Below, in pieces: positions 7,582 through 22,750 of a stretch of 64,000 nucleotides of DNA (within the stretch, counting starts at the first letter, position 1; each line of letters starts with the position of its first letter). The translations under genes and the position numbers were made by a program. The DNA comes from Candidatus Magasanikiibacteriota bacterium (GTDB lineage Bacteria; Patescibacteriota; Patescibacteriia; Magasanikbacterales; 2-02-FULL-50-9b). Location: NCBI GenBank assembly GCA_903893485.1, contig CAITMK010000014.1, positions 66,144 through 130,143 on the forward strand, given 5' to 3'. Below the pieces are notes generated by a model. That model searched no databases and was not told where the DNA came from. It was given only the letters and a program-made list of their open reading frames with translations.

Positions 7582-8653
7582 ATACCCGTTCATAATCCGC
7601 GACCATCGCGCGAATATCAAAATCTTTTTGCGCTTTCACGCGCGCGGCCGCACCTAATTCACGCGCGGCCGCTTGGTTTTGCCACACGCGACGAATTGCA
7701 ACTTGCAGCGCATCGACATCTTCTACTGGCACCAACATACCGGTTACGCCATCATCAATTAATTCAGGAATACCGCCCACATTACTTGCAATTACCGTGC
7801 GACCCGCGGCCATGGCTTCCATAATTACCAAACCAATTCCCTCCCAACGCGACGACATGACCACTACATCCGACGCGGCCAAATACGGCGCCACATCCAT
7901 GTGCGTGCCCACAAAATGCACGCGATCATGCATGTGATTAATAATTGCCAAATCAACTAAACTATCTTTTGCAGAACCTTCGCCGACCAACGTTAATTCC
8001 CACGGCACATCACGCAAAGTTGATAATGCATTTAATAAAATGTCGTGTCCTTTTTGTGGCTCCAAACGGCCGATCGCTAAAAGTTGCATTACCTCACCAA
8101 AAGGCGCTGGCGGAATTTGCGCAAATCGCCCAGTCTCGACCGCATTGCGAATAACTGTAATTTTATCGGTCGGAAAATTTTCTTCTTCAACTAAAAATTT
8201 TTTTATGCCGTCGGAAGCCGCAACCACCGCGCTTGATCCGTACGACAAAACTTGCTTGATACGATGTTTTAATTCACCAATATCAACATCAGTATTTTGC
8301 TCCGAAAAAACTAAGTGTGGCACGCGATTTAATTTCGATGCGATCTCGCCCCACAAATGCCCGCCAAATAAATGTGTGTGTACAATGTCTGGCTCCAAAC
8401 GATTCAAAAGTGCGATTAATTCCACCAGCATCACGAGCCCCAATTCCGATGTTTTTTTAAGCGGATAATATGGCACGCCAAGTTCGCGAATGTCGGCTTC
8501 AAGCGGGCCGCCATCAACAATCGTAATTACCGCAAAATCAAACGCGTCGCGATTTCCATAGCGCACCAATTCCGTCAAAATGCGTTCCGCGCCGCCGAGC
8601 GCCAGCGTTGGAATAATATGCACTACTTTTAGTTTTCGAGTTGCGGTGTTCAT
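7559..8653 (-). CDS. Glycosyltransferase family 4
   Basis: GGAER, GRLEPQKG, EGIGLVIMEAMAAG. ATGA overlap with the upstream gene. Confidence 0.92.
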   Translation of the reverse strand: MNTATRKLKVVHIIPTLALGGAERILTELVRYGNRDAFDFAVITIVDGGPLEADIRELGVPYYPLKKTSELGLVMLVELIALLNRLEPDIVHTHLFGGHLWGEIASKLNRVPHLVFSEQNTDVDIGELKHRIKQVLSYGSSAVVAASDGIKKFLVEEENFPTDKITVIRNAVETGRFAQIPPAPFGEVMQLLAIGRLEPQKGHDILLNALSTLRDVPWELTLVGEGSAKDSLVDLAIINHMHDRVHFVGTHMDVAPYLAASDVVVMSSRWEGIGLVIMEAMAAGRTVIASNVGGIPELIDDGVTGMLVPVEDVDALQVAIRRVWQNQAAARELGAAARVKAQKDFDIRAMVADYERVYAHLAHQ

Positions 8654-9996
8654 AGAAGAGAGGCCAGACAGAGCCCGACCAGGACCCACACTTTACCATC
8701 AAAATAGCCAGTGTTAAAGAGCTGATAGGCCCACAGAGAAATAAACGTAAAAAACCAAACGGCTTCGAATGCGCTGTGGCGACGCTTCCACAAACGCCAA
8801 CCCAAACTTATGAGCAACGCCAAAAACGCGATTGTGCCAAGCGCGCCGGTTTCTGCCATCACTTTTTGCAAAAATCCGTGCGCATCGAGCGGGTCGCCGT
8901 AATCTAATCGAAACGCGGCGGTCTCGCCAACTAATTGAATAAACGTACCCGGCCCCTGCCCGGTGAGCGGCGCGCGATTAAAATACGTAAGAGCAATGCC
9001 GGTTAAATCTGTACGCGTTGCATTGCTGCTGTCGGCCACGGCGGTGTTTTCGATCCACATGAAAAATAATGCGACCACGGCAACAACCGCCACAATTGCA
9101 ACGCGCCGGCGACCCGTATGTTTTCCAAAAAACCACAGCCAGCCCAAACCTTGCAGCGCCAAAACAATCCATGCAGCGCGCGAAAAAGTTAATGCCGAGA
9201 CAATTGCAATGAGTGCCGCTGCCCCGCCCCAGAAAATTTTTGCCGCGCGCGTTTTTTGTTCACTCGCCCACCACACTGCAAACGGAATGATCGCGGTCAA
9301 ACTTTCAGCGAGCACATTATGATTCGTGCCAAATGGAATGTATCCAAAAATTGCAAATGGTTCTGCGCGCGGAAACCCAATGGAGCTGGTCACAAAAATC
9401 GAAACCGCGCCCATGAGTGCGCCCGCCAAACATGCAATTTCATACGCAACCGCGGCATAAATAATTTCTGCTCGGCGATTTACAAATAATAAAATCGGCA
9501 ACACGAACGCCAGATACGTAAAAAGATATGGCCGAAAAAATGCTTTAAGCGATGTACCAAAATAAATGGGATCACCAAAATATACCGCAGCCGCAACCGC
9601 CGCAAACCAAAGCAAAAACCACGGCAAATGATTTTTGATGTGCGCGGGAAATATTTTTTTGTGATTAATGAAAAAAATTATTGGCGCGGCAACTAACAAA
9701 ATAATGGCGATAAAATCTACCACTGGCGCTTCGATGCCACCAAGATAAGGCACACGCGATAAACTTTGTTCACTTGCAAATGAAATTGCCAGCCCCGAAA
9801 GCGGTGCCGCCGCGGCAAGCGCATACACACCCCATACTGGCCGTGCAACGACCGCAATAAAAATTGCTAACAGCGCAAAAACAATTACCACGCCCGCCCA
9901 TGAAATATAAAAAGAGGCCGCAATGCTAAGCGCAATTGCAATTCCAAACCACGCTACCAATTCCCATGTGGCACGTTCAATGAGCTGCTGTTTCAT
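8650..9996 (-). CDS. O-antigen ligase/polymerase (Wzy_C) family membrane protein
   Basis: Multiple TM helices, TFSRAAW, and PLTGQGPGTF..AHG..AETGALG. Confidence 0.88.
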   Translation of the reverse strand: MKQQLIERATWELVAWFGIAIALSIAASFYISWAGVVIVFALLAIFIAVVARPVWGVYALAAAAPLSGLAISFASEQSLSRVPYLGGIEAPVVDFIAIILLVAAPIIFFINHKKIFPAHIKNHLPWFLLWFAAVAAAVYFGDPIYFGTSLKAFFRPYLFTYLAFVLPILLFVNRRAEIIYAAVAYEIACLAGALMGAVSIFVTSSIGFPRAEPFAIFGYIPFGTNHNVLAESLTAIIPFAVWWASEQKTRAAKIFWGGAAALIAIVSALTFSRAAWIVLALQGLGWLWFFGKHTGRRRVAIVAVVAVVALFFMWIENTAVADSSNATRTDLTGIALTYFNRAPLTGQGPGTFIQLVGETAAFRLDYGDPLDAHGFLQKVMAETGALGTIAFLALLISLGWRLWKRRHSAFEAVWFFTFISLWAYQLFNTGYFDGKVWVLVGLCLASLL

Positions 9997-10058: not shown

Positions 10059-10373
10059 CTACTGTGCAAATCGCAACTCAGCAATTTGTTCGGCGCGTTT
10101 TAAATAGCCGACAATTTCATCGTGAAAATTGAGATTATCGTTGCGAAACAGTTGCATTTCTGTGGTTAGACGCTGCTCAACGTCTGTTAAGCGTAAATCA
10201 ATCGCTTCAATCCGTGCACTCAACCTTACTTCAACATCGTCGATTTTGGCAGTCAAATTAGTTTCAACTTCATCAATCCTTGCCGTTAACCGATCTTCGA
10301 CATCTAAAACCTGCTGCGTGGCTTGCACCGCAACCGCGCCAATCATTTCAATAATATCACCCTCCTTGATCAT
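10059..10373 (-). CDS. Small coiled-coil protein with 11-residue repeats
   Basis: LTARIDEVETN / LTAKIDDVEVR / LSARIEAIDLR. TTGACA-N17-TATAGT upstream; no SD. Confidence 0.7.
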   Translation of the reverse strand: MIKEGDIIEMIGAVAVQATQQVLDVEDRLTARIDEVETNLTAKIDDVEVRLSARIEAIDLRLTDVEQRLTTEMQLFRNDNLNFHDEIVGYLKRAEQIAELRFAQ

Positions 10374-10493
10374 AATAAAAAAATATGAATAATTATTTGC
10401 ACTATACCAAACGAAAAATTTCTGTCAAATAAAAAAACGCCGACAGCTCCCGTGGGGAAACTGCCGGACATGGGGCTTTGCGCGGTCGCGTGA

Positions 10494-10988
10494 TTAGCCG
10501 CCCTGCGCCTCTGCACTGCGCCGGATGAGAACCGCCTCGGTTGGAGGCATCCGCATCTCTTCGAGCAGCCGTTGCAGCGACACGTGGTTGATGCAATTCC
10601 ATGTGCTGTAATGGATCGCCACAATGCCGTAGTCGCGCACGCTCTGCACGACCTCCGCGTTTTCATCGACGACGACATTGACTTCAAGCTCCTGGCACAG
10701 CACCGCCTTCTTGGAATCGTCATCGACCACATGGACATTGATGAGCGACGCGGCGAAACCGTCGAGCCAATACTTGAGCCACTCCTGCAAGAGATCGGCG
10801 TCGAGCTGCTCGCGCCCCGGCTTGGTGACGAAAACAAGGTTAACTTGATGTGAGCGCACGGCCCACATCAGTGTCTCGATCGCTTTTGGAAAAAACGGCA
10901 CTTTGCCGAATCCCCCGCGTTCGAATGCCTCGATTTGCGCGCCGTTAAACAGCGCCAAAGTATTTGCCACACCAAATGCAATTCGCAT
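10494..10988 (-). CDS. Hypothetical protein with a degenerate HAD/5'-nucleotidase-like fold
   Basis: GGAGG SD; TTGACT-N17-TATGCT promoter. MRIAFGVANTL and K..LCQELEVNVVVDE resemble HAD motifs I, III and IV. Confidence 0.65.
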   Translation of the reverse strand: MRIAFGVANTLALFNGAQIEAFERGGFGKVPFFPKAIETLMWAVRSHQVNLVFVTKPGREQLDADLLQEWLKYWLDGFAASLINVHVVDDDSKKAVLCQELEVNVVVDENAEVVQSVRDYGIVAIHYSTWNCINHVSLQRLLEEMRMPPTEAVLIRRSAEAQGG

Positions 10989-11145
10989 GACACCCTCCAT
11001 GAGTTGTGAAACTCGAGAAAAAAGCATACCACAAAATGGCCCGAAAGTCAAGGGTAATAGCTGCTTTTTTGTTCAAAATATAAAAATAAAAACAGGCAGC
11101 AACTTTTTGCAAAGTGCTGCCCGGAGCGAGGACGACGCGATCGCG

Positions 11146-11901
11146 CTAATCGTCATACGCTACAGAAACCTTGGTTGAACTGAACTGCGCCTCGCGCTTC
11201 ATGTCCAGGATAAAGTCCACTGCCTCGCCGTTGCTGCGATACGAAAGCTCGGACTGGTTGCAATCTGCCACCGCGCGCAAACCATTTTGCACGGTCGTGC
11301 GCACCAGCAGGTTGGCATCCTTGGAATACTGGCCGTCGTTGATAACCTTCACACGGACCGTGGCGCCACGCTTGCCAAACACGCGGATCAGCGTTTCCGC
11401 GCCATCGTACGGACCTTTGGTAATTTGCCGCGGGCACATGTAATTGAGCACGTGCGGCGCATTATCCTTCGTCCATTCTGAGCGTGGAATCACCTGCGGA
11501 ATTTGCAACTCCGCAGACTTTTCGGACAAATGGAATGGCGCCCGCTCCGCATATTCCAGAAATTTCTCGAACGCGACATCTTGCGTCGCCGTGTCGGTTG
11601 GCGAGCATGCCATTTGCGCCGCCGTGCCGCCGTTGAACAGCTGCAATTCGCAGTACACGTCGTGGATCTGTTCTGCAGACGAGGCGGCCTCTGGAAGTCC
11701 AACCGCCACGGATGTCACCGCTTCAATTGCAGGCGTCGGGTCCGACGGCACAATGTTCGCGATGAGTTCCTGGCGATACACGATGCACGCAATGAGAACC
11801 GCCAACGCCGCAGAAATAAGCAGCGCGCGATCAACCTGCCGCGCGTTCCAAAACGACCGTCCGATTTCACTTACCGGAATTCCTTTTGGGAATTTTTTCA
11901 T
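11146..11901 (-). CDS. Hypothetical single-TM extracytoplasmic protein
   Basis: GGAGG SD; TTGACA-N17-TATGGT promoter; N-terminal TM helix. Confidence 0.7.
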   Translation of the reverse strand: MKKFPKGIPVSEIGRSFWNARQVDRALLISAALAVLIACIVYRQELIANIVPSDPTPAIEAVTSVAVGLPEAASSAEQIHDVYCELQLFNGGTAAQMACSPTDTATQDVAFEKFLEYAERAPFHLSEKSAELQIPQVIPRSEWTKDNAPHVLNYMCPRQITKGPYDGAETLIRVFGKRGATVRVKVINDGQYSKDANLLVRTTVQNGLRAVADCNQSELSYRSNGEAVDFILDMKREAQFSSTKVSVAYDD

Positions 11902-11929
11902 GAGTCCTCCAACTCGGTGAGGGGGAAAG

Positions 11930-12313
11930 TTACCCGGGCACCATACCGGATTTTGGGGGTTTTGTCAATGGTGAGAGGGCCAAAAACTTTTGCATTTCGA
12001 TACAGACTTTTTCGTAGAGATTTTTTTCTGAGACGCGGATTGCGCAGAGACGCTGCGTGGCCCAAAGACGGAATTGCATGCCACGAACTGCCCGGAAATT
12101 CCGGACAGTTGGATTTCGCTCTAATTCACCCTCTTCGTACAGTTTCTGAACATGTTCAGAAACAGTGCGTTTATCTTTTTGAAAAAGATCGACCATTTGC
12201 ATAAGACTCAAACACACCGTTTCGTCCTGCAAACGCACCTGAACCTGCAGCGATCCATCGGCAGCTTCGTATAAAATAATTTGGTTTTGATGTTCCCCGC
12301 CCTGAGACAACAT
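11930..12313 (-). pseudogene. Internally deleted RhuM (virulence_RhuM) family remnant
   Basis: QIILY..DG..VQVRLQDETVCLSLMQMVDLFQKDKRTVSEH..YEEGEL, RGMQFRLWATQRL and IRVSEKNLYEKV are joined directly, without the segments that normally separate them. Confidence 0.75.
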
Positions 12314-12547
12314 ATTTTTAAAATTAAAATGGCATGCAAAAACTATGCCCGAACAAAAACCGAATGTCAAGAGTGGTTATGCACTTTTTGTGCACAGAAA
12401 ATTCCGTGAAATAAAAAAACACCACACCGCTTGAGCATCCTGGGTAGGATTGCAGCAAGCAATGTGGCGTCACTCAACTCGTTGTGTGAGTGTGACCCTT
12501 TCGGATCATTGCAGAGTCGCCGTTACTGAGGCGCTACTGCGTTGGAA

Positions 12548-14464
12548 CTACTGCGGCGTGAACGTGAACTTCGCGGTGCCCTTCACGTAGCCGTTCAGGT
12601 TCTTCGGGCCAGAGATGCCGTCGAACCAGAGGCGCTGATTGGGCTGACCCGTGCCGCTGAAGCTGATCGCCGTCTGACCGCCTTGCAGGCAATCCGACGC
12701 CGTCATTTCCTTCGGCAAATCCGGCCCGCAATTGACGGTCTGCTGCAGCATCATGAGGATGCTGGTGGAAGGCGAAACCGTCTTGTCCGGCGCAATCGTG
12801 ACCGAGACCTTCACGCTTTGCGGCGCGCTGATCACGTACACTTGCTCCGGGCCAGTCGCGCCCGAAACCGTCATGCCGTCCGCGCACGTCCATTTGTCCA
12901 CCGTTTGCTTTCCGGCGGGCGCAGTGGTCGTGTCGACGTTTTTGCTAATGACGAGCGTGCCGCTGCCCGTGTAAGTAACGTAGACCACGTCGCTGCACAC
13001 ATCGCACGCGCCGCCTTCGTCGATCTGCAAGTTGCAGTTGTCGTCGAAGCCGTTGCAGACCTCCGGCGCATTCGGGTGGACGCTCGCCTTCGAGTCGTCG
13101 CAGTCCGTGTCGTCAAGGATCCACTTGCCCACGGGCGCGCATGCCAGCGTCGTCACGGCCGCGTTGCCGTAGCCGTCGCCATCGCCGTCCCAGTAAAGCG
13201 TCAACTTCACGCCCTCGTCGATCTGCTTGTCGCAGTTGTCGTCGAGGCCGTTGCAAACCTCCTTGGCGCCCGGGTAGATGGCGGCGTTGGTGTCGTCGCA
13301 GTCCGTCGAGTCGCTCACGTAGCCGGCCGGAGCCGAGCACGCTTGCTTGGTGCTGCTGAGGTTGCCGAACTTGTCGCCATCCGTGTCGGCGTAGTAGGTC
13401 GTCTGAACGCCCTCGTCGATCTGCTTGTCGCAGTTGTCGTCGAGGCCGTTGCAAACCTCCTTGGCGCCCGGGTAGATGGCGGCGTTGGTGTCGTCGCAGT
13501 CCGTCTTGCTCGTGACCTTGAAGTTCGCGTCTGCCGAGCACTGGCACGAACCGCTACCGGCGCCGTAAGTGTCACCGTCCACATCAGCGTAGAACCAGGT
13601 GCAGTTGAGCACGTTGCCTGCCGGATCGACGCTGCCATCGCAGTTGTCATCGACGCCCACCGTACTGCAATCGTCCATGATGCCCGGGTGAATCTTGGGA
13701 TCCAGGTCGTTGCAGTCATCGGAACTGGTCACGTAGTTGAGCGGCTCGGTGCAGCCCATCTTCGTGCTCGAGGAAAGGCCATGACCGTCGCCGTCGCCGT
13801 CGAAATAGAACGTCGTCTGGACGCCGTTGTCGATGACGGTGTCGCAGTCATTGTCCTTGCCGTCGCACGTTTCCTTGACCGGCAGACCCTGCGTGCACGT
13901 CGGATTGGGGTCCAGCGTGCCGTCCGGTTTGCATGCCAAAGCGTCGCAGGCGCATTCGCCGACGCCCACTTTGGTGCCCGGAAAGCTCGCCTTCGGCGGC
14001 GTCATGCACAAGAAGCGCGTGATGCCGTCGGTGGTTTCCAGCGGCACGGGAACCGAGTCCACGCACTTGCTGTTGGTCGAGGCCGCCACCGCCGCATCGC
14101 AGCCGCCGGACGAAGTGCTGAACGACGCGTCGTCGAGACCCAGCGGCGAAGCCGAGCAATCGAACGCCATCGCATCGAAGTTGTACGGGCAATCCGGCGC
14201 GAGCACGCACTTCTGGATGCTCTTGTTCCACGCCCACTTGGTGCGGTGAATCGGATCATCGGGCAGCGCGTCGCACAGCGTCTGGCTGATGGCCAGCTTG
14301 GCCGTGAGCGCGAACGATTGCGAGCCGAACGTCGCCGTCGGCGCTTGGGGCGCGGTTTTCACCGCATCGAGCACCGCAGAACCGCTCTGCGGTGCGGTCG
14401 GACCGGCACAGCCGATCAGACTTGCCAGCGCACAAAGCGCCAGCAAAGGGTTGAACTTCTTCAT
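12548..14464 (-). CDS. Cys-rich lipoprotein with MopE-related putative metal-binding repeats
   Basis: Lipobox LIGC; repeated DCDD..A.IYPGA.EVCNG.DDNCD.QIDEG and YxDxDGDGYG motifs; AGGAG SD. Confidence 0.88.
   Translation of the reverse strand: MKKFNPLLALCALASLIGCAGPTAPQSGSAVLDAVKTAPQAPTATFGSQSFALTAKLAISQTLCDALPDDPIHRTKWAWNKSIQKCVLAPDCPYNFDAMAFDCSASPLGLDDASFSTSSGGCDAAVAASTNSKCVDSVPVPLETTDGITRFLCMTPPKASFPGTKVGVGECACDALACKPDGTLDPNPTCTQGLPVKETCDGKDNDCDTVIDNGVQTTFYFDGDGDGHGLSSSTKMGCTEPLNYVTSSDDCNDLDPKIHPGIMDDCSTVGVDDNCDGSVDPAGNVLNCTWFYADVDGDTYGAGSGSCQCSADANFKVTSKTDCDDTNAAIYPGAKEVCNGLDDNCDKQIDEGVQTTYYADTDGDKFGNLSSTKQACSAPAGYVSDSTDCDDTNAAIYPGAKEVCNGLDDNCDKQIDEGVKLTLYWDGDGDGYGNAAVTTLACAPVGKWILDDTDCDDSKASVHPNAPEVCNGFDDNCNLQIDEGGACDVCSDVVYVTYTGSGTLVISKNVDTTTAPAGKQTVDKWTCADGMTVSGATGPEQVYVISAPQSVKVSVTIAPDKTVSPSTSILMMLQQTVNCGPDLPKEMTASDCLQGGQTAISFSGTGQPNQRLWFDGISGPKNLNGYVKGTAKFTFTPQ
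13209..13505. repeat. Exact 99-bp intragenic direct repeat (13209-13307 = 13407-13505)
   Basis: Both copies encode TDCDDTNAAIYPGAKEVCNGLDDNCDKQIDEGV with identical nucleotides, 198 bp apart. Confidence 0.9.
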
Positions 14465-14708: not shown

Positions 14709-16397
14709 TTACTTCTTGAACTTGGCGCACCAATCCACGACACCGCCTGGACCAAACATGTCCGGCAAAGCGATGTTGCTCTCGATGTCAAAGTCACCGG
14801 GACCCAGATCCACGAGCGGCACCAAAGCGCCGAGCGGATCTTGTACCGTCATGTACGGACCGCCAATCGCGTAGTGATCCTTGCCCTTGTTGAGCATGGA
14901 ATACGCGGTGCCGCCAAATTCGATCGGCGGAGTACCCTTGGCCGCGCCGACGTCGTACGCGTCACAAAACAGCTGCGCCGAGATCTTCACTTCGGGCGAG
15001 ATGCCCGAGATGTAGTTCGGAGCACCCGCCAGCTTGAAGTAGCCCCAGCTATTCCCGATAGTGGTCAGGATCATAGCATACGGCGCCGGCGCGTACAAGC
15101 CCATGATGTCCGAGCTTTCGCCCGTGCTCATCGTGAAAAACAGCGGCGTCCATTCACAGCCAACCTGCGAGTCGCAGGTGTCCAACGTCCAGTACTTCTG
15201 GTCGTTGCACTTGGCGGTGACCGTTGCGAAGGACCACGGAACAAACTGGCAGCCCAGCAGCGGCAGGCACGAATCGTCGGTGCACTTGTCGCCATCATCG
15301 CACGTCACGACCGTACCCTTGCAGGCAGCGGTCTTGTCGCAGATGTCGCCGTCTGTGCACAGATTGCCGTCCGTGCACGACTTGCCCACAATGGGCAGGT
15401 GCTTGAACACGCCGGTCTGCGGATCACACTTGGCGTCCTCCGTGCATTCGTTGCCGTCGTCCTCGAGCTTGGCCTCCGACAAGCACTTGCGCAGATCCGT
15501 ATCGCACGTCACCTGGATGCACAGATTGCCTTTGAATTGCGGCTGCGCGAGGCAGTCCGCATCCGTGTTGCAATCGTACGCCGGCAAACCTTCACAGGTG
15601 CCGGCCGTGCAAACGTCATTCTCCGTCGCCGGATTCCCGTCGTCGCACTTGCTGCCATCCTTCAGCTCCGCGGTCTGGCAGCCCAGCTTGGCGTCGCAGG
15701 AATCGGTCGTGCACGGGTTGCCGTCGTCGCACTTCAGGGTCGAACCTTTGCATGCGCCGACCGCACAAGTATCCGCTGTCGTGCATACGTTCCCGTCATC
15801 ACACGCCGCCGTGTTGTTCGCGTAGACGCAGCCCTTGGCTTTGTCGCACGAGTCATCGGTGCATGCGTTGCCGTCGTTGCAGGGCAACGTCGCGCCTTCG
15901 CACGAACCCGCCTTGCAGCTGTCGCCGGTGGTGCAGGCATCGCCGTCGTCGCACACGATTGCCGTGGCGATTGGTGACGCGACGCACTTGCCGAGCTTGG
16001 CATCACAGCTGCTGACGACGCACGGGTTGCTATTGTCGCAAACCACGGACACGCCCTTGCAGTAGCCAACGCCATCGCAGGCGTCGCCGGTGGTGCACGC
16101 GAGCTTGTCGTCGCACGCCGTGCCTTCCTTGGGATACGTCGCGCCTTTCGGCCGAACGCATTGCCCGGAAACGCACGTGAACTGGACATCGCATGTGGTC
16201 TTGTTCAGCGGCGCGCAATCCGGATTCGTTTCGCACAGCACGATTTGTGCCACAGAAACGTCCGGCGCGGGCGCCTGAACATCGACCTGAACGCTGCCGG
16301 CGTCCTCGGTGGGCGCGCTACCGCCCGAACCAGCTGCCTGCGTACAGCCCGCGACAATCGCGAACGGCACGCAGAGTTTGATCAAACGCGTGAACAT
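14709..16397 (-). CDS. Cys-rich lipoprotein with CDDGNxCTxDxC (Dictyostelium CTDC-like) repeats
   Basis: Lipobox VAGC; about a dozen CDDGNxCTxDxC-type units; GGAGGT SD. Confidence 0.88.
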   Translation of the reverse strand: MFTRLIKLCVPFAIVAGCTQAAGSGGSAPTEDAGSVQVDVQAPAPDVSVAQIVLCETNPDCAPLNKTTCDVQFTCVSGQCVRPKGATYPKEGTACDDKLACTTGDACDGVGYCKGVSVVCDNSNPCVVSSCDAKLGKCVASPIATAIVCDDGDACTTGDSCKAGSCEGATLPCNDGNACTDDSCDKAKGCVYANNTAACDDGNVCTTADTCAVGACKGSTLKCDDGNPCTTDSCDAKLGCQTAELKDGSKCDDGNPATENDVCTAGTCEGLPAYDCNTDADCLAQPQFKGNLCIQVTCDTDLRKCLSEAKLEDDGNECTEDAKCDPQTGVFKHLPIVGKSCTDGNLCTDGDICDKTAACKGTVVTCDDGDKCTDDSCLPLLGCQFVPWSFATVTAKCNDQKYWTLDTCDSQVGCEWTPLFFTMSTGESSDIMGLYAPAPYAMILTTIGNSWGYFKLAGAPNYISGISPEVKISAQLFCDAYDVGAAKGTPPIEFGGTAYSMLNKGKDHYAIGGPYMTVQDPLGALVPLVDLGPGDFDIESNIALPDMFGPGGVVDWCAKFKK

Positions 16398-18227: not shown

Positions 18228-18363
18228 GTCCGGGATGCTATTATCAGATGCTTTATATTAGTTGTCAAGAAACGTCCTGTGGAAAAAAATCTCCGGGGTG
18301 GTCGACAAGCGTTATTGCTTGCCGACCACCCCTTCGTTGTTGCTCTTGCCGCCGGTTAGGTGA

Positions 18364-19335
18364 CTAGAAGCCGTACTGGATCCCGAACGTGACGCCGAGC
18401 ACCGGATCGAACTTGACGCCGTGGTCCAGGTTGCCCCGGAGGTCAAACGCGAAATTCGACTTGCCCATGAAAATCTCCGCACCCAGCGCCCCGCCGAACC
18501 GGTTTTCCGTCACATTGTGACTGAACCCGTTTTCAGCGATGCTGACCGCGTGGAAGCCGGCGTAGATCGCAAATTCGCGATGAAAATCGATCTTGGCCGC
18601 TGCCAGGTAATCGATCTCCGCGTGATTGTCGCCGCCGAAGGCCATGCGCACATCGAACTTGCCGTCCAGCCACTGGTGGCCGAACGATTCGATGCCGAGG
18701 CCAAAGCCACCGATGCCCGTCTGGTTCACGCCGCCGAAACCGGCGAGGATGAACTTCCACGAGGACGGCACGTTGGCGATCGGATTGACCCGGGGCGCCT
18801 GCGGCACGTACTGCTGCGGTTGCGGCTGCGGCGTGACCAGTTCCTTCCGGAGCTGCTTGAGCCCCGTCCACGCCGCCTGGGCGATGACCAAAGCCTCGCG
18901 AGCTTCGGACGCCGTCTGCAGCGTGTTGACCAGGATGCCGGCCTGCCGCGCCCGCATCAGCCGCAACGCGACGTCGTCGTCGTGATACTTGATCACTTCG
19001 ACGATGCGCGTGGCGGACACCACGCAACGGGGGTTGCGGAGCTGATCGTGAATCTTCTCGAGGGCGCTCACGCGCACGACGAGAGACGTGATCAGCTGCT
19101 GCGACAACCCGTTCGCACTCGCCTGCCCAGCCATCTGCTGGATCGTGGCGTTGCGCTCGGTCTTGGCCATGTCGGTCAACGTATCGACCGCTTTCGCCGC
19201 CTCCGCCCGCATCTCCGGAGAGAGCGGGCGATCGTCCGGCGCAGCGGGCGCCAAATTGACCTGCTGCGCAAACGCAGCCGGGGCCGAGACACAGAACATC
19301 AAGGTCGCCATCGCGACCGTCATCAACTTCTTCAT
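18364..19335 (-). CDS. Secreted protein with a helical N-terminus and a C-terminal outer-membrane beta-barrel-like domain
   Basis: Sec signal ending AFA; alternating amphipathic Gly/aromatic strands; ends GVTFGIQYGF (beta-signal-like); AGGAG SD. Confidence 0.75.
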   Translation of the reverse strand: MKKLMTVAMATLMFCVSAPAAFAQQVNLAPAAPDDRPLSPEMRAEAAKAVDTLTDMAKTERNATIQQMAGQASANGLSQQLITSLVVRVSALEKIHDQLRNPRCVVSATRIVEVIKYHDDDVALRLMRARQAGILVNTLQTASEAREALVIAQAAWTGLKQLRKELVTPQPQPQQYVPQAPRVNPIANVPSSWKFILAGFGGVNQTGIGGFGLGIESFGHQWLDGKFDVRMAFGGDNHAEIDYLAAAKIDFHREFAIYAGFHAVSIAENGFSHNVTENRFGGALGAEIFMGKSNFAFDLRGNLDHGVKFDPVLGVTFGIQYGF

Positions 19336-19588
19336 GACGAACTCCTACACAGTAAAGTGACCGCGAGGGCCACGAAAGAAACTACCAGTGAAAAGGGCGC
19401 GTGCTAAGTATCCGATCGGACACCTACCACTTCTGCTTTTGAGAGCATATCTGTACTGCCTAAAGCAACACGGACATGATCTTAAAATAATCGTCCTGGG
19501 GAGCGAAATCGTGGATTCGGCGGTTGCCTTATCACACTTCTTCGCTCCCCAAGGAGTTTGCGCCCCAGTCACTTAGGGGCATTTGGCG

Positions 19589-20275
19589 CTACGGCTGCCG
19601 CAGGAAGCCGTTCGCGCGCGCCTCGCCGTCGGCCCGCGCGCTCGCATACGCCTGATTCAGCGTGCGCAGCTCGCGGCACTGTGCCGGCGTCGGGTGCGGC
19701 TCGCCGTAGATCTGGCAGTCGCCGTCGCTCCGGGCAGCGCCGCGCTTGTCTTCGGACTTCGTGTGCGCTTTCGGGGCGGCGGGCTCGATCTTGATGACCT
19801 CGCCGTCGTCCTTCTTGTCGCCCGCGTCGTCGGACTTCACGTGTGCCTTGGCCTTGGCTTTCGCCTTGGCCGCCCACTCGCCCTTCCAGTTCTCCGTCGC
19901 GCCCTTGGTGGCGTCGTGGAGGCCCTTGGCGCCCAGGCAGTCCTGGTACGCAGCGCCGCACTTCGCGTTGGCCGCGTTGGCGAGTTCTTGCGCGCGCGCC
20001 TGGCAGATCTTGCCGCTCTCGCCGCAGTTGATGAACTCATGCGCCAAGATGTGCGCGACGAGATTCTTGCAGCTCGTCTGCACCTCCTCGCACGTCGAGG
20101 CCGTCGTCGGCGCCGGCACCGCAACCACCGCCGGCTTCGGCGGATCGTCGGTCGGCACTTTCACCGGGTCGACCTGCTTGGGGCAGTCCTTGCCGCAGGT
20201 CACCGTGGTGGTGCCGCACGCAGCAGCCGTCATCGCGACCAAAACCAGAACGCCAGAAACAAAAAGCTTCTTCAT
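19589..20275 (-). CDS. Hypothetical lipoprotein
   Basis: Lipobox AAAC; paired Cys; GGAGG SD; TTGACT-N17-TATTGT promoter. Confidence 0.8.
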   Translation of the reverse strand: MKKLFVSGVLVLVAMTAAACGTTTVTCGKDCPKQVDPVKVPTDDPPKPAVVAVPAPTTASTCEEVQTSCKNLVAHILAHEFINCGESGKICQARAQELANAANAKCGAAYQDCLGAKGLHDATKGATENWKGEWAAKAKAKAKAHVKSDDAGDKKDDGEVIKIEPAAPKAHTKSEDKRGAARSDGDCQIYGEPHPTPAQCRELRTLNQAYASARADGEARANGFLRQP

Positions 20276-20545
20276 TGCTTGTGCCTCCCCAATCGGTTAC
20301 TACCGTGGGATCAGTTGACCTTCCAACAATACGAACACCCCAGTGGTGACGCACGTTGTCCAGCCAAATTCAGAAAACAAACTATTCTACCAACTAATTG
20401 TACGGAACTGGAACTGTTGCCCCACGAGATAGGCTTGTGGCCGTCTCAATGTGACTTAATACAATATCACACTTTCCTGGAAAAGTCAAGGGGGTGGGGG
20501 CCATTTAGACCCTCACCCCCAAGAAATGCAAAAAATTATTAAAAA

Positions 20546-21148
20546 TTAGCCAAAAATGCCGTGTTTATGGTGCGCCAAACTATAAATAAAGCTAACCGCT
20601 CCACCAAGCAGGAATCCTGCCACTGCAATTGCCAAAAAATTAGGCTTCTGTGGATACTGCGACGCAACTGGCGAATCAATAAGCCGGTAATCTGCCGCAT
20701 TAACCGCAAAGTCATTGCCCGTTCCACCCAGCACACCCGCAACCGTGCTCGCAATCGCAACGGCCTGCGCCTTATTGGTATGATACGCGGTAATTCCTAA
20801 AATGCCGGTATTATAGGTAACACTCGCATCAATGGTCTGAGACCAAAGCTTGCGGCGCTGCAGTTCGTCTGTTGGAAAATACGAAACATCAATCCCCGAC
20901 CCTGGCACGGCAATTACACGAGAAAAAAATTGACTCGTACCAACAACTTCCGCCAAATTTTGTGCGATACGCTCAGCCGCCTTGCTGCTGGTGTAAGGAT
21001 CAACTCCCGGCGTTGCGCGCGGTGTAATAAGTAATCGAGCTTCAGCGCCATACTTAAGTGGAAAAACCACCAACGCCACGAGACATGCAACAACGGCAAC
21101 CGCCAATCCGCTGCCGACTGACGTGTACAAAGAACGAGCGTAATTCAT
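20546..21148 (-). CDS. Wzz/CapA (YveK)-like polysaccharide chain-length determinant
   Basis: Two TM helices flanking a loop; P.KYGAEARLLI N-terminal motif; Pro-rich segment before the C-terminal TM. Confidence 0.75.
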   Translation of the reverse strand: MNYARSLYTSVGSGLAVAVVACLVALVVFPLKYGAEARLLITPRATPGVDPYTSSKAAERIAQNLAEVVGTSQFFSRVIAVPGSGIDVSYFPTDELQRRKLWSQTIDASVTYNTGILGITAYHTNKAQAVAIASTVAGVLGGTGNDFAVNAADYRLIDSPVASQYPQKPNFLAIAVAGFLLGGAVSFIYSLAHHKHGIFG

Positions 21149-21149
21149 A

Positions 21150-22199
21150 TTATTGAAGATGAGAAATTTTTGTAGTGAGTGGAACCGCGAGATCAATTGA
21201 TTTTCCGCCGCGCAGTACCGTAACGTGAAGCGTTCCGTCTGCAACCGCTGCCTGCACCAAAGGAAACAATTCGGTATCACCTTCAATGGATGATCCGCCA
21301 ATTGAGGTAATTATATCATCATCTTTCAAATCTGACGCGCCACGAGTTGGACGAAGTGTTTGAACTAAAAATCCTTGGGTGCTTGTGGTTGACTCAAATA
21401 CAAATGGTGAACGAATTGAATTTGCAACTCGCACCGGCAAACTTGCGCGCGTAATGGTGCCCGCCGTAAACACTGATTGAAAAATTGGTTTAACGGCGCT
21501 CGTTGGAATAATTACCAATCGATTATTTTGTGTTGTTGCAAAACCAACTAGTGTGCCCCGCACGGTGATCACCGGAGCGCCATCAGCACTGTGCGGCACA
21601 ATTGATTCAACCACGGCGCCGGCAAACGAAAGTGTATCCGCATATTCGTACGGGCATTTATCCGCAACACAAAGTGAAGTGTCTTGCAGTGTCACGGGCA
21701 ACGCGGTATCAGGCAACACCACAATCAGGCGTGAACCGCGCGCCATGTCTGCTAAATTTTCTTCGTCTAAAATATGTAAATTTTGCGCGTGCGTTTTAAT
21801 GAATGCCAAATTGGTTGCACCGTCGACGATTGTTTTTTCGATGGGCAAACTACCAACGCCGCGTACTAATAATTTTTTTCCGCGCACCGCACGTGCGTCC
21901 GCAATAAACCAACCGTCTGAGGTAATTGCAGTTGCATATGTTGCATCAGCCGCGCCCACCACCGAAGCCACACTTTGCGTTGCTTCCATTACCCGTGTTT
22001 CATCGATGCCATCAGGAGCCTGCTCAATACGCGTTTCATATTTTGTAGTCGCGGTGCTGCCATAACTGGCATACAATAAACTCGCCACAAAACCACTGAG
22101 CGCGCCAATTAAAATCATGGCAACAAAATAACCCGTTGCTGGATGTAACGTTTGTACATTTGTATCTTCTGAAGGAATATGTGGTGCGGTAGGTGTCAT
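21150..22199 (-). CDS. HtrA/S1C protease-like protein with PDZ domain, catalytic triad degenerate
   Basis: TM anchor; ITSDGWFIAD, DGATNLAFIK, DGAPVITVRGTLVG; C-terminal LKDDDIITSIGG..VTVLRGGK. Confidence 0.7.
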   Translation of the reverse strand: MTPTAPHIPSEDTNVQTLHPATGYFVAMILIGALSGFVASLLYASYGSTATTKYETRIEQAPDGIDETRVMEATQSVASVVGAADATYATAITSDGWFIADARAVRGKKLLVRGVGSLPIEKTIVDGATNLAFIKTHAQNLHILDEENLADMARGSRLIVVLPDTALPVTLQDTSLCVADKCPYEYADTLSFAGAVVESIVPHSADGAPVITVRGTLVGFATTQNNRLVIIPTSAVKPIFQSVFTAGTITRASLPVRVANSIRSPFVFESTTSTQGFLVQTLRPTRGASDLKDDDIITSIGGSSIEGDTELFPLVQAAVADGTLHVTVLRGGKSIDLAVPLTTKISHLQ

Positions 22200-22750
22200 A
22201 GGAACCAACTAAATAATGAAACGCAAAATACAATTACGATTACAAAAATACTTGCGGTAATGATAAGACGTTTTGTGGAGTTGCCCGCGGTAATGCCATG
22301 CACAAGCGTTGCCAAAAAAGCGAACGCTGCCGCGGCCAATGCGCCACGACCAAAAAAACTTGCGGATCCAAACAAAAGAACTAAACACCAGATAGTCCAA
22401 AGCGCACCAAAAACAATTCGGGTGGTAAAATCTTTTTCAAAAAGAAAAATAAATCCGATACAAACAATAGTGGTGATAAGTGCGACTGACCAAACAGGCA
22501 TTAATTGAAGTGCGCTACAGCCATACGCAAGTGAAATCCATTCCCACGCCGCAAAAGAAAAAAGTGCGGTGCGAAGCGTTGGAAATTTTTCGGTGAGTTC
22601 GAGGCGACGCGTGACTTCGTAACCAATTGTTAGTACAAGCGCGGCAACCGCAAGCACCCACACCAATGATGACGCATCAAAAAGAAGCGCGAGCAATGCG
22701 GCGCCGATAATCGTTAAAATTTGTGCATTATATTGTACCCAGAATTTCAT
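22196..22750 (-). CDS. Hypothetical multi-TM membrane protein
   Basis: Hydrophobic ORF translationally coupled within the operon. Confidence 0.7.
   Translation of the reverse strand: MKFWVQYNAQILTIIGAALLALLFDASSLVWVLAVAALVLTIGYEVTRRLELTEKFPTLRTALFSFAAWEWISLAYGCSALQLMPVWSVALITTIVCIGFIFLFEKDFTTRIVFGALWTIWCLVLLFGSASFFGRGALAAAAFAFLATLVHGITAGNSTKRLIITASIFVIVIVFCVSLFSWFL

Follow-up and report, generated by a model that had tools for sequence, protein, structure and literature searches.

Among known proteins, P0002, the product of the gene discussed here, comes closest to the eight-stranded β-barrels of Gram-negative outer membranes (OMP_b-brl, PF13505; the membrane domain of OmpA, OmpX, PagP, NspA). 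The β-signal of such proteins is read by BamA from the periplasmic side. P0002 resembles them in its predicted fold, its signal peptide and its Y-x-F end, but its barrel is C-terminal and stands behind a helical stalk of 125 residues; it scores below every Pfam cut-off and is not filed here as a member of the PF13505 class, and it stems from a lineage without detectable BAM. Another point of comparison is OmpM of Veillonella and SlpA of Deinococcus, whose barrels are large porins with more strands than the roughly eight of P0002. There, as set out in PMC10628300, a periplasmic stalk followed by a C-terminal barrel ties the membrane to the wall. A wall-binding-like domain is also present in one protein (family f3) from the corresponding position in a relative; unlike OmpM and SlpA, P0002 has no SLH domain, its barrel region comprises 131 residues and its owner lacks outer-membrane markers. 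The TraAB pair of myxobacterial outer-membrane exchange is similar in layout, that is, a barrel with a Cys-rich partner, but TraB, according to PMC6372800, consists of an N-terminal barrel, thrombospondin-3 repeats and a C-terminal OmpA domain, whereas P0002 has the reverse order and lacks the OmpA domain. The neighbors of P0002 carry PF11617 and PF00526 repeats and no PA14-like or MYXO-CTERM match; this comparison is one of architecture, with no sequence link seen. Trimeric autotransporter adhesins have a YadA-type anchor of four strands per chain, whereas P0002 has no such Pfam match and is modeled with eight strands in about 130 residues. Lambda encodes the eight-stranded barrel Lom and the lipoprotein Bor, envelope genes of lysogenic conversion. 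They too are a parasite-encoded barrel and lipoprotein making use of the export and BAM machineries of the host; unlike them, the P0002 gene occupies a slot in a cellular chromosome, with core flanks and synteny, and no relative of P0002 was found in the viral contigs searched. P0002 would work like a barrel of the OmpA/OmpX class on an OmpM-like stalk, but lacks defining features of each of these systems and is assigned to none. Its owner, a Magasanikbacterium, belongs to the Patescibacteria, which are treated as monoderm in PMC12102498 and PMC8871954, and within the open-access literature no paper on outer-membrane barrels in this group was found.

The window, that is, the whole stretch of 64,000 nucleotides analyzed, is part of the 948-kb genome of a presumably host-dependent bacterium, with a completeness of 98.85% and a contamination of 0.01%. 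An exact minus-strand ORF for 323 aa (Table 1) confirmed what the preliminary description had seen in the barrel gene, namely a signal peptide, a helical linker, about eight strands and, in the translation, the terminus GVTFGIQYGF. The barrel region has eight alternating strands over its 131 residues (193–323; strands counted by eye), with a strand-alternation score no better than chance (69 of 1000 shuffles scored as high). The Sec signal peptide and the C-terminal aromatic β-signal were both assigned by eye, the latter by the consensus of such signals; the RVSALE of the stalk is presumably a coiled-coil trimer motif, that being the meaning of motifs of the RhxxhE type.

Table 1. The barrel gene, its parts and its surroundings (positions in the window)
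Feature	Position	Strand	Basis or remark
Gene for stalked β-barrel protein P0002, 323 aa, GC3 0.86	18364..19335	-	exact ORF
Shine-Dalgarno AGGAG, ATG 6 nt downstream	19342..19346	-	
Cleavable Sec signal peptide, residues 1-23, AFA/Q	19267..19335	-	read by eye
Helical stalk, residues 41-165	18841..19215	-	inferred from sequence
RVSALE, RhxxhE-type coiled-coil trimer motif (presumed), in stalk	19057..19074	-	unchanged in P0013
Pro/Gln-rich linker, residues 166-192	18760..18840	-	
Predicted 8-stranded OMP-type barrel, residues 193-323, Y-x-F end	18367..18759	-	Atlas model; PF13505 score of homolog
Intrinsic-terminator-like hairpin, 16 pairs, 3' of barrel gene	18295..18332	-	
Orphan lipoprotein, 228 aa, GC3 0.90 (upstream cassette gene)	19589..20275	-	
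Cys-rich orphan lipoprotein, 450 aa	16680..18032	-	served by a separate TTGACA-17-GATAAT site, 18268-18240
Dicty_CTDC (PF00526) repeat lipoprotein, 562 aa	14709..16397	-	
MopE-like (PF11617) repeat lipoprotein, 638 aa	12548..14464	-	
Upstream core flank: Wzz-like gene, adjoins PDZ-domain gene	20546..21301	-	weak GNVR match
Downstream core flank: membrane protein, presumably O-antigen-ligase-like	8650..9996	-	synteny anchor

Structure models make it very probable that the C-terminal domain of P0002 folds as a barrel of the outer-membrane type. The ESM Atlas model of residues 186–323 matched predicted OMP-barrel models at TM 0.74–0.85 in 10 of the 10 matches listed, with predictions standing on both sides; six of these ten carry PF13505, one PF13568 alone and three no family. 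The named feature neighbors of the Atlas model are OMP barrels as well (0.93–0.95), with OMP_b-brl, PagP, PagL and opacity clusters among the names. The best model is thus an OMP-type barrel and not the soluble β-sandwich which the preliminary description had named as the alternative, while the route by AlphaFold and Foldseek that it had proposed was of less help: the two AlphaFold2 models, of which one was computed without an alignment and the other from 12 aligned rows, partly mis-registered and picked from 60 subsets tried, are of low confidence (pLDDT 37 and 47), and Foldseek returned nothing at E ≤ 0.001, porins and PagP being among the non-significant rows. A Pfam scan of P0002 gave no match to a barrel family. 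A search of 1.84 billion representatives yielded P0013 (E 1e-6, 28% identity) as its sole full-length homolog. This protein retains the RVSALE motif as well as the signal peptide, ends in F like P0002, and matches PF13505 with an E of 0.0022 and 18.7 bits, which is under the cut-off of 28.7 bits. The homolog search recovered P0002 itself alone among 4065 candidates; none was found in the metagenome, genome and viral contigs searched, 201 genomes of the order gave two weak matches, both unrelated, the PDB sequences gave noise only, and a two-row alignment led to one weak match, confined to the stalk. P0012 was considered as a homolog and dropped, the match being one of low complexity to a large unrelated protein.

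The preliminary description missed that the barrel gene is part of an order-wide cassette of barrel and lipoprotein genes. It lies within 8 kb of DNA with a GC content of about 62%, compared to 45% for the window, and a promoter-like site (TTGACT-17-TATTGT at 20489–20461, minus strand) may drive the gene of the 228-aa lipoprotein together with the barrel gene. Both borders between cassette and core are bridged by contigs from four public runs of one study, which possibly include the source, the first across 18300–22254 with one differing letter, the second across 10287–13238; none of the contigs covers the whole cassette. In a congener (G009) the order of genes is Wzz-like, first cassette gene, a signal-stalk-barrel protein of 332 aa, Cys-rich, Dicty_CTDC-like, MopE-like and ligase-like flank, and a member of another genus (G018) has the same order, spread over two contigs. 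The flanks are 48–64% identical to those of the two relatives, yet P0002 fails to detect their barrels. The barrel gene is resident and inherited, not a contamination or a stray import. Short pieces of the Cys-repeat DNA at 15700–15960 are shared by contigs of other GC-rich sequences in the same lake runs; organisms with such repeat genes therefore co-occur.

Of 240 genomes of the order, 107 yielded a match to the gene of the downstream flank. Forty of the regions upstream of it were fetched, picked for spread and expected length; 29 of these were at least 12 kb long, six were contig ends of 1.4–3.9 kb and were excluded, and five more short ones were analyzed outside the count of 29. At least one barrel-like gene, called with a glycine/aromatic filter and judgement by eye, is located next to Cys-rich lipoprotein genes in 18 of the 29 long loci; five have in its place a stalk protein with a Gly/Ala-rich hydrophobic tail, three (family f7) a lipoprotein only, and another three little or no cassette. 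That hydrophobic tails replace barrels suggests that the membrane anchors of the slot are interchangeable. Signal-stalk proteins with such a tail at the barrel position were noted in L070, L074, L085, L095 and L097. The same slot is also held by L055, which bears the label Gammaproteobacteria, and by L057, which bears the label Peribacteraceae; these may be mis-binned or indicate a wider spread.

Counting G009, G018 and G111, the slot barrels amount to 26 from five families, all with intact frames; 20 of them end in F, W or Y, and six are without a terminal aromatic residue. The RhxxhE-type motif occurs in 19 of the 26 as opposed to 24 of 510 proteins encoded by the genome under study, with a pattern loosened to admit N and a background not matched for coiled coils. 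As there is no sequence link to P0002, the slot barrels are a family by position and architecture: all profiles meant to tie P0002 to them, or to the small-barrel family described below, failed, many slot barrels also miss one another in leave-one-out profiles, and against the PDB the slot-barrel profile had OmpX in its top row without significance (E 0.24). Of the four family-f3 barrels scanned, one matched PF00691 below cut-off (E 5.8e-4), which points to an OmpA-like domain at its N-terminus. In the f3 proteins (L063, L065, L066, L067) the OmpA-like part is N-terminal, which is the reverse of the order in OmpA, and L063 also shows thrombospondin-3-like repeats by eye. The same architecture was found once outside the order, in another order of the class (one such match among 401 genomes), and P0006, the best homolog of a slot barrel, likewise comes from the slot. 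Comparisons within two genera gave identities of 84–89% for the flanks and 30–34% for the barrels; one close pair (78% identity, dN 0.17, dS 1.19) is under purifying selection, while dN/dS values for pairs below 45% identity are unreliable and give rough rates only. Three of the six PF13505 matches in the order were dropped, L008 and L009 because they look like foreign contigs and L011 as an antisense artefact.

The cassette differs from the core of the genome in how its genes are started and spelled. Among 893 genes, predicted with a gene caller made for this analysis, a Shine-Dalgarno (SD) match of at least 5 precedes 67 of 100 genes with a GC3 of at least 0.6 and 60 of 728 with a GC3 below 0.5. 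A −10 box immediately upstream of the start is present in 139 of 715 core genes and in none of 77 SD-class genes, whereas a −35/−10 pair precedes 36 of the 77 and 135 of the 715. The five cassette genes prefer CCG (0.72), ACG (0.59), GCG (0.55), CTG (0.41), CGG (0.36) and GAG (0.60); in 21 genes of the ribosomal cluster the respective values are 0.05, 0.07, 0.11, 0.03, 0.00 and 0.09. High GC3 as the cell's own code for high expression fails on this account, since the ribosomal genes avoid the codons of the cassette. Among the 42 tRNAs found, some others possibly being unassembled, there is a single anticodon each for Pro and Lys, both starting with U, which by wobble can read G. The set includes Ile with UAU and Arg with GCG anticodons; Arg-UCG, Pro-CGG/GGG and Lys-CUU were not found among the 42. 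At four-fold degenerate sites a pair of cassette lipoprotein genes differs in 54% and still has a GC4 of 0.88 in both members, compared to 0.44 and 0.39 in the flank, and the spacers of the cassette have about 0.50 GC. A GAGC lipobox is present in 9 of 13 low-GC3 and 0 of 10 high-GC3 lipoproteins of this genome and in none of 43 SD-led lipoproteins in the loci of relatives; examined over 400 kb each, G019 shows the contrast again (GxGC in six of six core lipoproteins) and G115 shows it weakly (one of four). Genome-wide and in L101-L140, two lipobox dialects are apparent, with G-A/x-G-C in core lipoproteins but not in those of the SD class. The slot barrels diverge far faster than their flanks yet stay SD-led and rich in GC3. 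Composition alone would equally fit DNA from a GC-rich donor; a passive origin of that kind is disfavored because the slot is conserved and donors are lacking. Adenylosuccinate synthetase (L005:9215-10540, plus strand) is a member of the SD-led, GC3-rich class (0.64), and other nucleotide enzymes seem to be so too, which is reminiscent of auxiliary genes of phages.

No machinery for building an outer membrane was detected in the owner of P0002. The search for bamA, lol and lpt genes advised by the preliminary description found no BamA, Lpt, Lol or Lpx marker: Omp85 was not found in any of the 151 genomes of the order searched, this one included (the control matched in 7 of 14), and LptD, LpxC, POTRA and LolA in none of five genomes each, two of them single-contig (the controls matched in diderm genomes). 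None of the eight proteins with an RG[YF] motif is a BamA-like candidate. Because the owner has no detectable machine for barrel insertion, the outer membrane of a host is the likely destination, and we put the probability at roughly 0.5 that P0002 is inserted by the BAM of a Gram-negative host into the host's outer membrane, to serve there as an anchor with a stalk or for docking and not as a pore. The host-directed role which the preliminary description had suggested is partly and indirectly supported by codon choice, by the lipobox dialect and by the slot being kept across five families; of the functions it had offered, the docking receptor, in the form of a stalked anchor, fits better. Eight-stranded barrels usually have a closed lumen, which makes the pore unlikely. 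The host BAM would insert the barrel of the secreted protein, and this small barrel would anchor, on the periplasmic side of the host's outer membrane, a stalk that may be trimeric and that in one family appears to bear an OmpA-like wall-binding domain. Together with the neighboring Cys-rich lipoproteins the barrel might form a variable surface contact patch, through which the parasite could hold on to the host or draw host membrane; the rapid divergence of the barrels fits such an interface.

How the protein would get there is less certain. If it is directed to a host, its translation there, from nucleic acid that the parasite delivers, is preferred and somewhat likelier than delivery of the finished protein to the periplasm of the host, since the cassette departs from the cell's own style in promoter, ribosome-binding site, codon use and lipobox alike. 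In full, this would mean that DNA or mRNA of SD-led, host-coded genes is delivered, from which ribosomes, Sec, Lgt/Lol and BAM of the host build a patch for docking and membrane transfer, a scheme we advance only tentatively and consider rather doubtful; delivery of the finished protein to the periplasm is unlikely. Against a host route counts that the cell has its own capacity for expression: its 16S tail retains CCTCC (the anti-SD), RpoD its C-terminal region, and Lgt, found in 98 of 101 genomes, is present together with LspA, so that expression of the cassette and processing of its products would be within the cell's own means. A lack of Lgt and LspA as proof of processing in the host therefore fails, as both genes are there. 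The type IV secretion system also counts against it, being without relaxase in most Patescibacteria according to PMC12102498, and so do two ABY1 families of another order, whose cells, in PMC9166423, were imaged either unattached or on lake snow.

It is quite unlikely that Magasanikbacteria instead own a cryptic outer membrane, perhaps of scavenged host lipid, which the stalked barrels tether to the wall and for which the insertase is too divergent to be detected. Such a membrane would suit the resemblance of stalk and barrel to outer-membrane tethers such as OmpM (PMC10628300), the OmpA-like domain in the f3 slot barrel (below cut-off), the several barrel types in the order and the presence of anti-SD, Lgt and LspA; moreover, Pfam misses the slot barrels and could likewise miss a BamA that evolves at their pace. 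However, Omp85, POTRA, LptD, LpxC and LolA were not found in the genomes searched and neither was a candidate among the RG[YF] proteins, genes of the cell's own envelope would be expected in the leaderless, AT3-rich, GAGC style, and the slot barrel is missing in 11 of the 29 long loci.

Of distinctly low probability, too, is a barrel that anchors itself without BAM in the one membrane of the cell and displays a stalk, which together with the lipoproteins would make up a variable patch of adhesins under a separate SD-led program. Small barrels can fold unaided in thin bilayers in vitro; the replacement of the barrel by a hydrophobic tail of the helical type in five loci, the location of the cassette in a region for surface polysaccharides and the expression and lipoprotein machinery of the cell would also agree with it. 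It offers no known use for the terminal aromatic residue (20 of 26), which is read by BAM, would require an unusual topology of the stalk, given a cleaved signal peptide and both ends of the barrel on one side, and leaves unexplained why the codons are opposite to those of the cell's highly expressed genes.

The slot might also be a landing site repeatedly refilled with genes captured from GC-rich Gram-negative neighbors, the barrel having no adapted role. The composition (GC3 0.86 with spacers of about 0.50) does resemble that of a genome of 62% GC, PF11617 and PF00526 repeats are common in Myxococcota, and the barrels of congeners are without detectable similarity; still, this is decidedly improbable, for the gene order is the same in five families, searches of 5.8 billion proteins, of 1.84 billion representatives and of genomes, metagenomes and viral contigs brought up no donor-like homolog except for one unplaced protein, the top homolog of a slot barrel (P0006) is a slot gene, and selection is purifying in the one close pair, with frames intact in 26 of 26. 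That the domain is a soluble β-protein, or the GC-rich stretch a mis-assembly, is very unlikely: the low AlphaFold confidence, the abrupt jump in GC from 0.45 to 0.62 and the origin of the checked runs (four from one study, possibly including the source sample) would speak for it, but the structure and feature matches in the Atlas are OMP barrels, single contigs cover 18300–22254 and 10287–13238 at even depth, and, with synteny in independent genomes and 0.01% contamination, the mis-assembly is already largely refuted.

Known biology of the Patescibacteria does not explain the barrel cassette. An order-wide, fast-evolving cassette of this kind would point either to an unrecognized second membrane or to a parasite that furnishes the outer membrane of its host, both of which would be surprising. 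If inserted by the host as preferred here, and if made there, the barrel would mean that Magasanikbacteria run part of their genome on host machinery in the manner of a virus. The codon and signal style of the cassette predicts a GC-rich Gram-negative host for the class, for which, to our knowledge, there is no cultured pair of host and parasite.

Other barrel-like genes exist in this genome and in the order. A second one here (L005:3208-4854, minus strand, corresponding to G000:C8:9207-10853) is SD-led with a GC3 of 0.70; its product has a membrane-bound N-terminal part, an internal stretch like a signal peptide and then about 270 residues that by eye resemble OprO/P porins, and it ends in VRIQFVF, with no support from Pfam. 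A family of small barrels (L023-L045, 160–195 aa) occurs in 23 of 240 genomes of the order, belonging to four families; its profile finds none in the genome of P0002 (G000). The genes are mostly SD-led with a GC3 of 0.47–0.84 and often stand beside polA, holA, rmuC or a TrmB-like regulator (labels by eye). In G121, two different barrel-like genes (L021:4816-5445 and 7869-8387) have a near-identical leader and start, and both adjoin a regulator-like gene.
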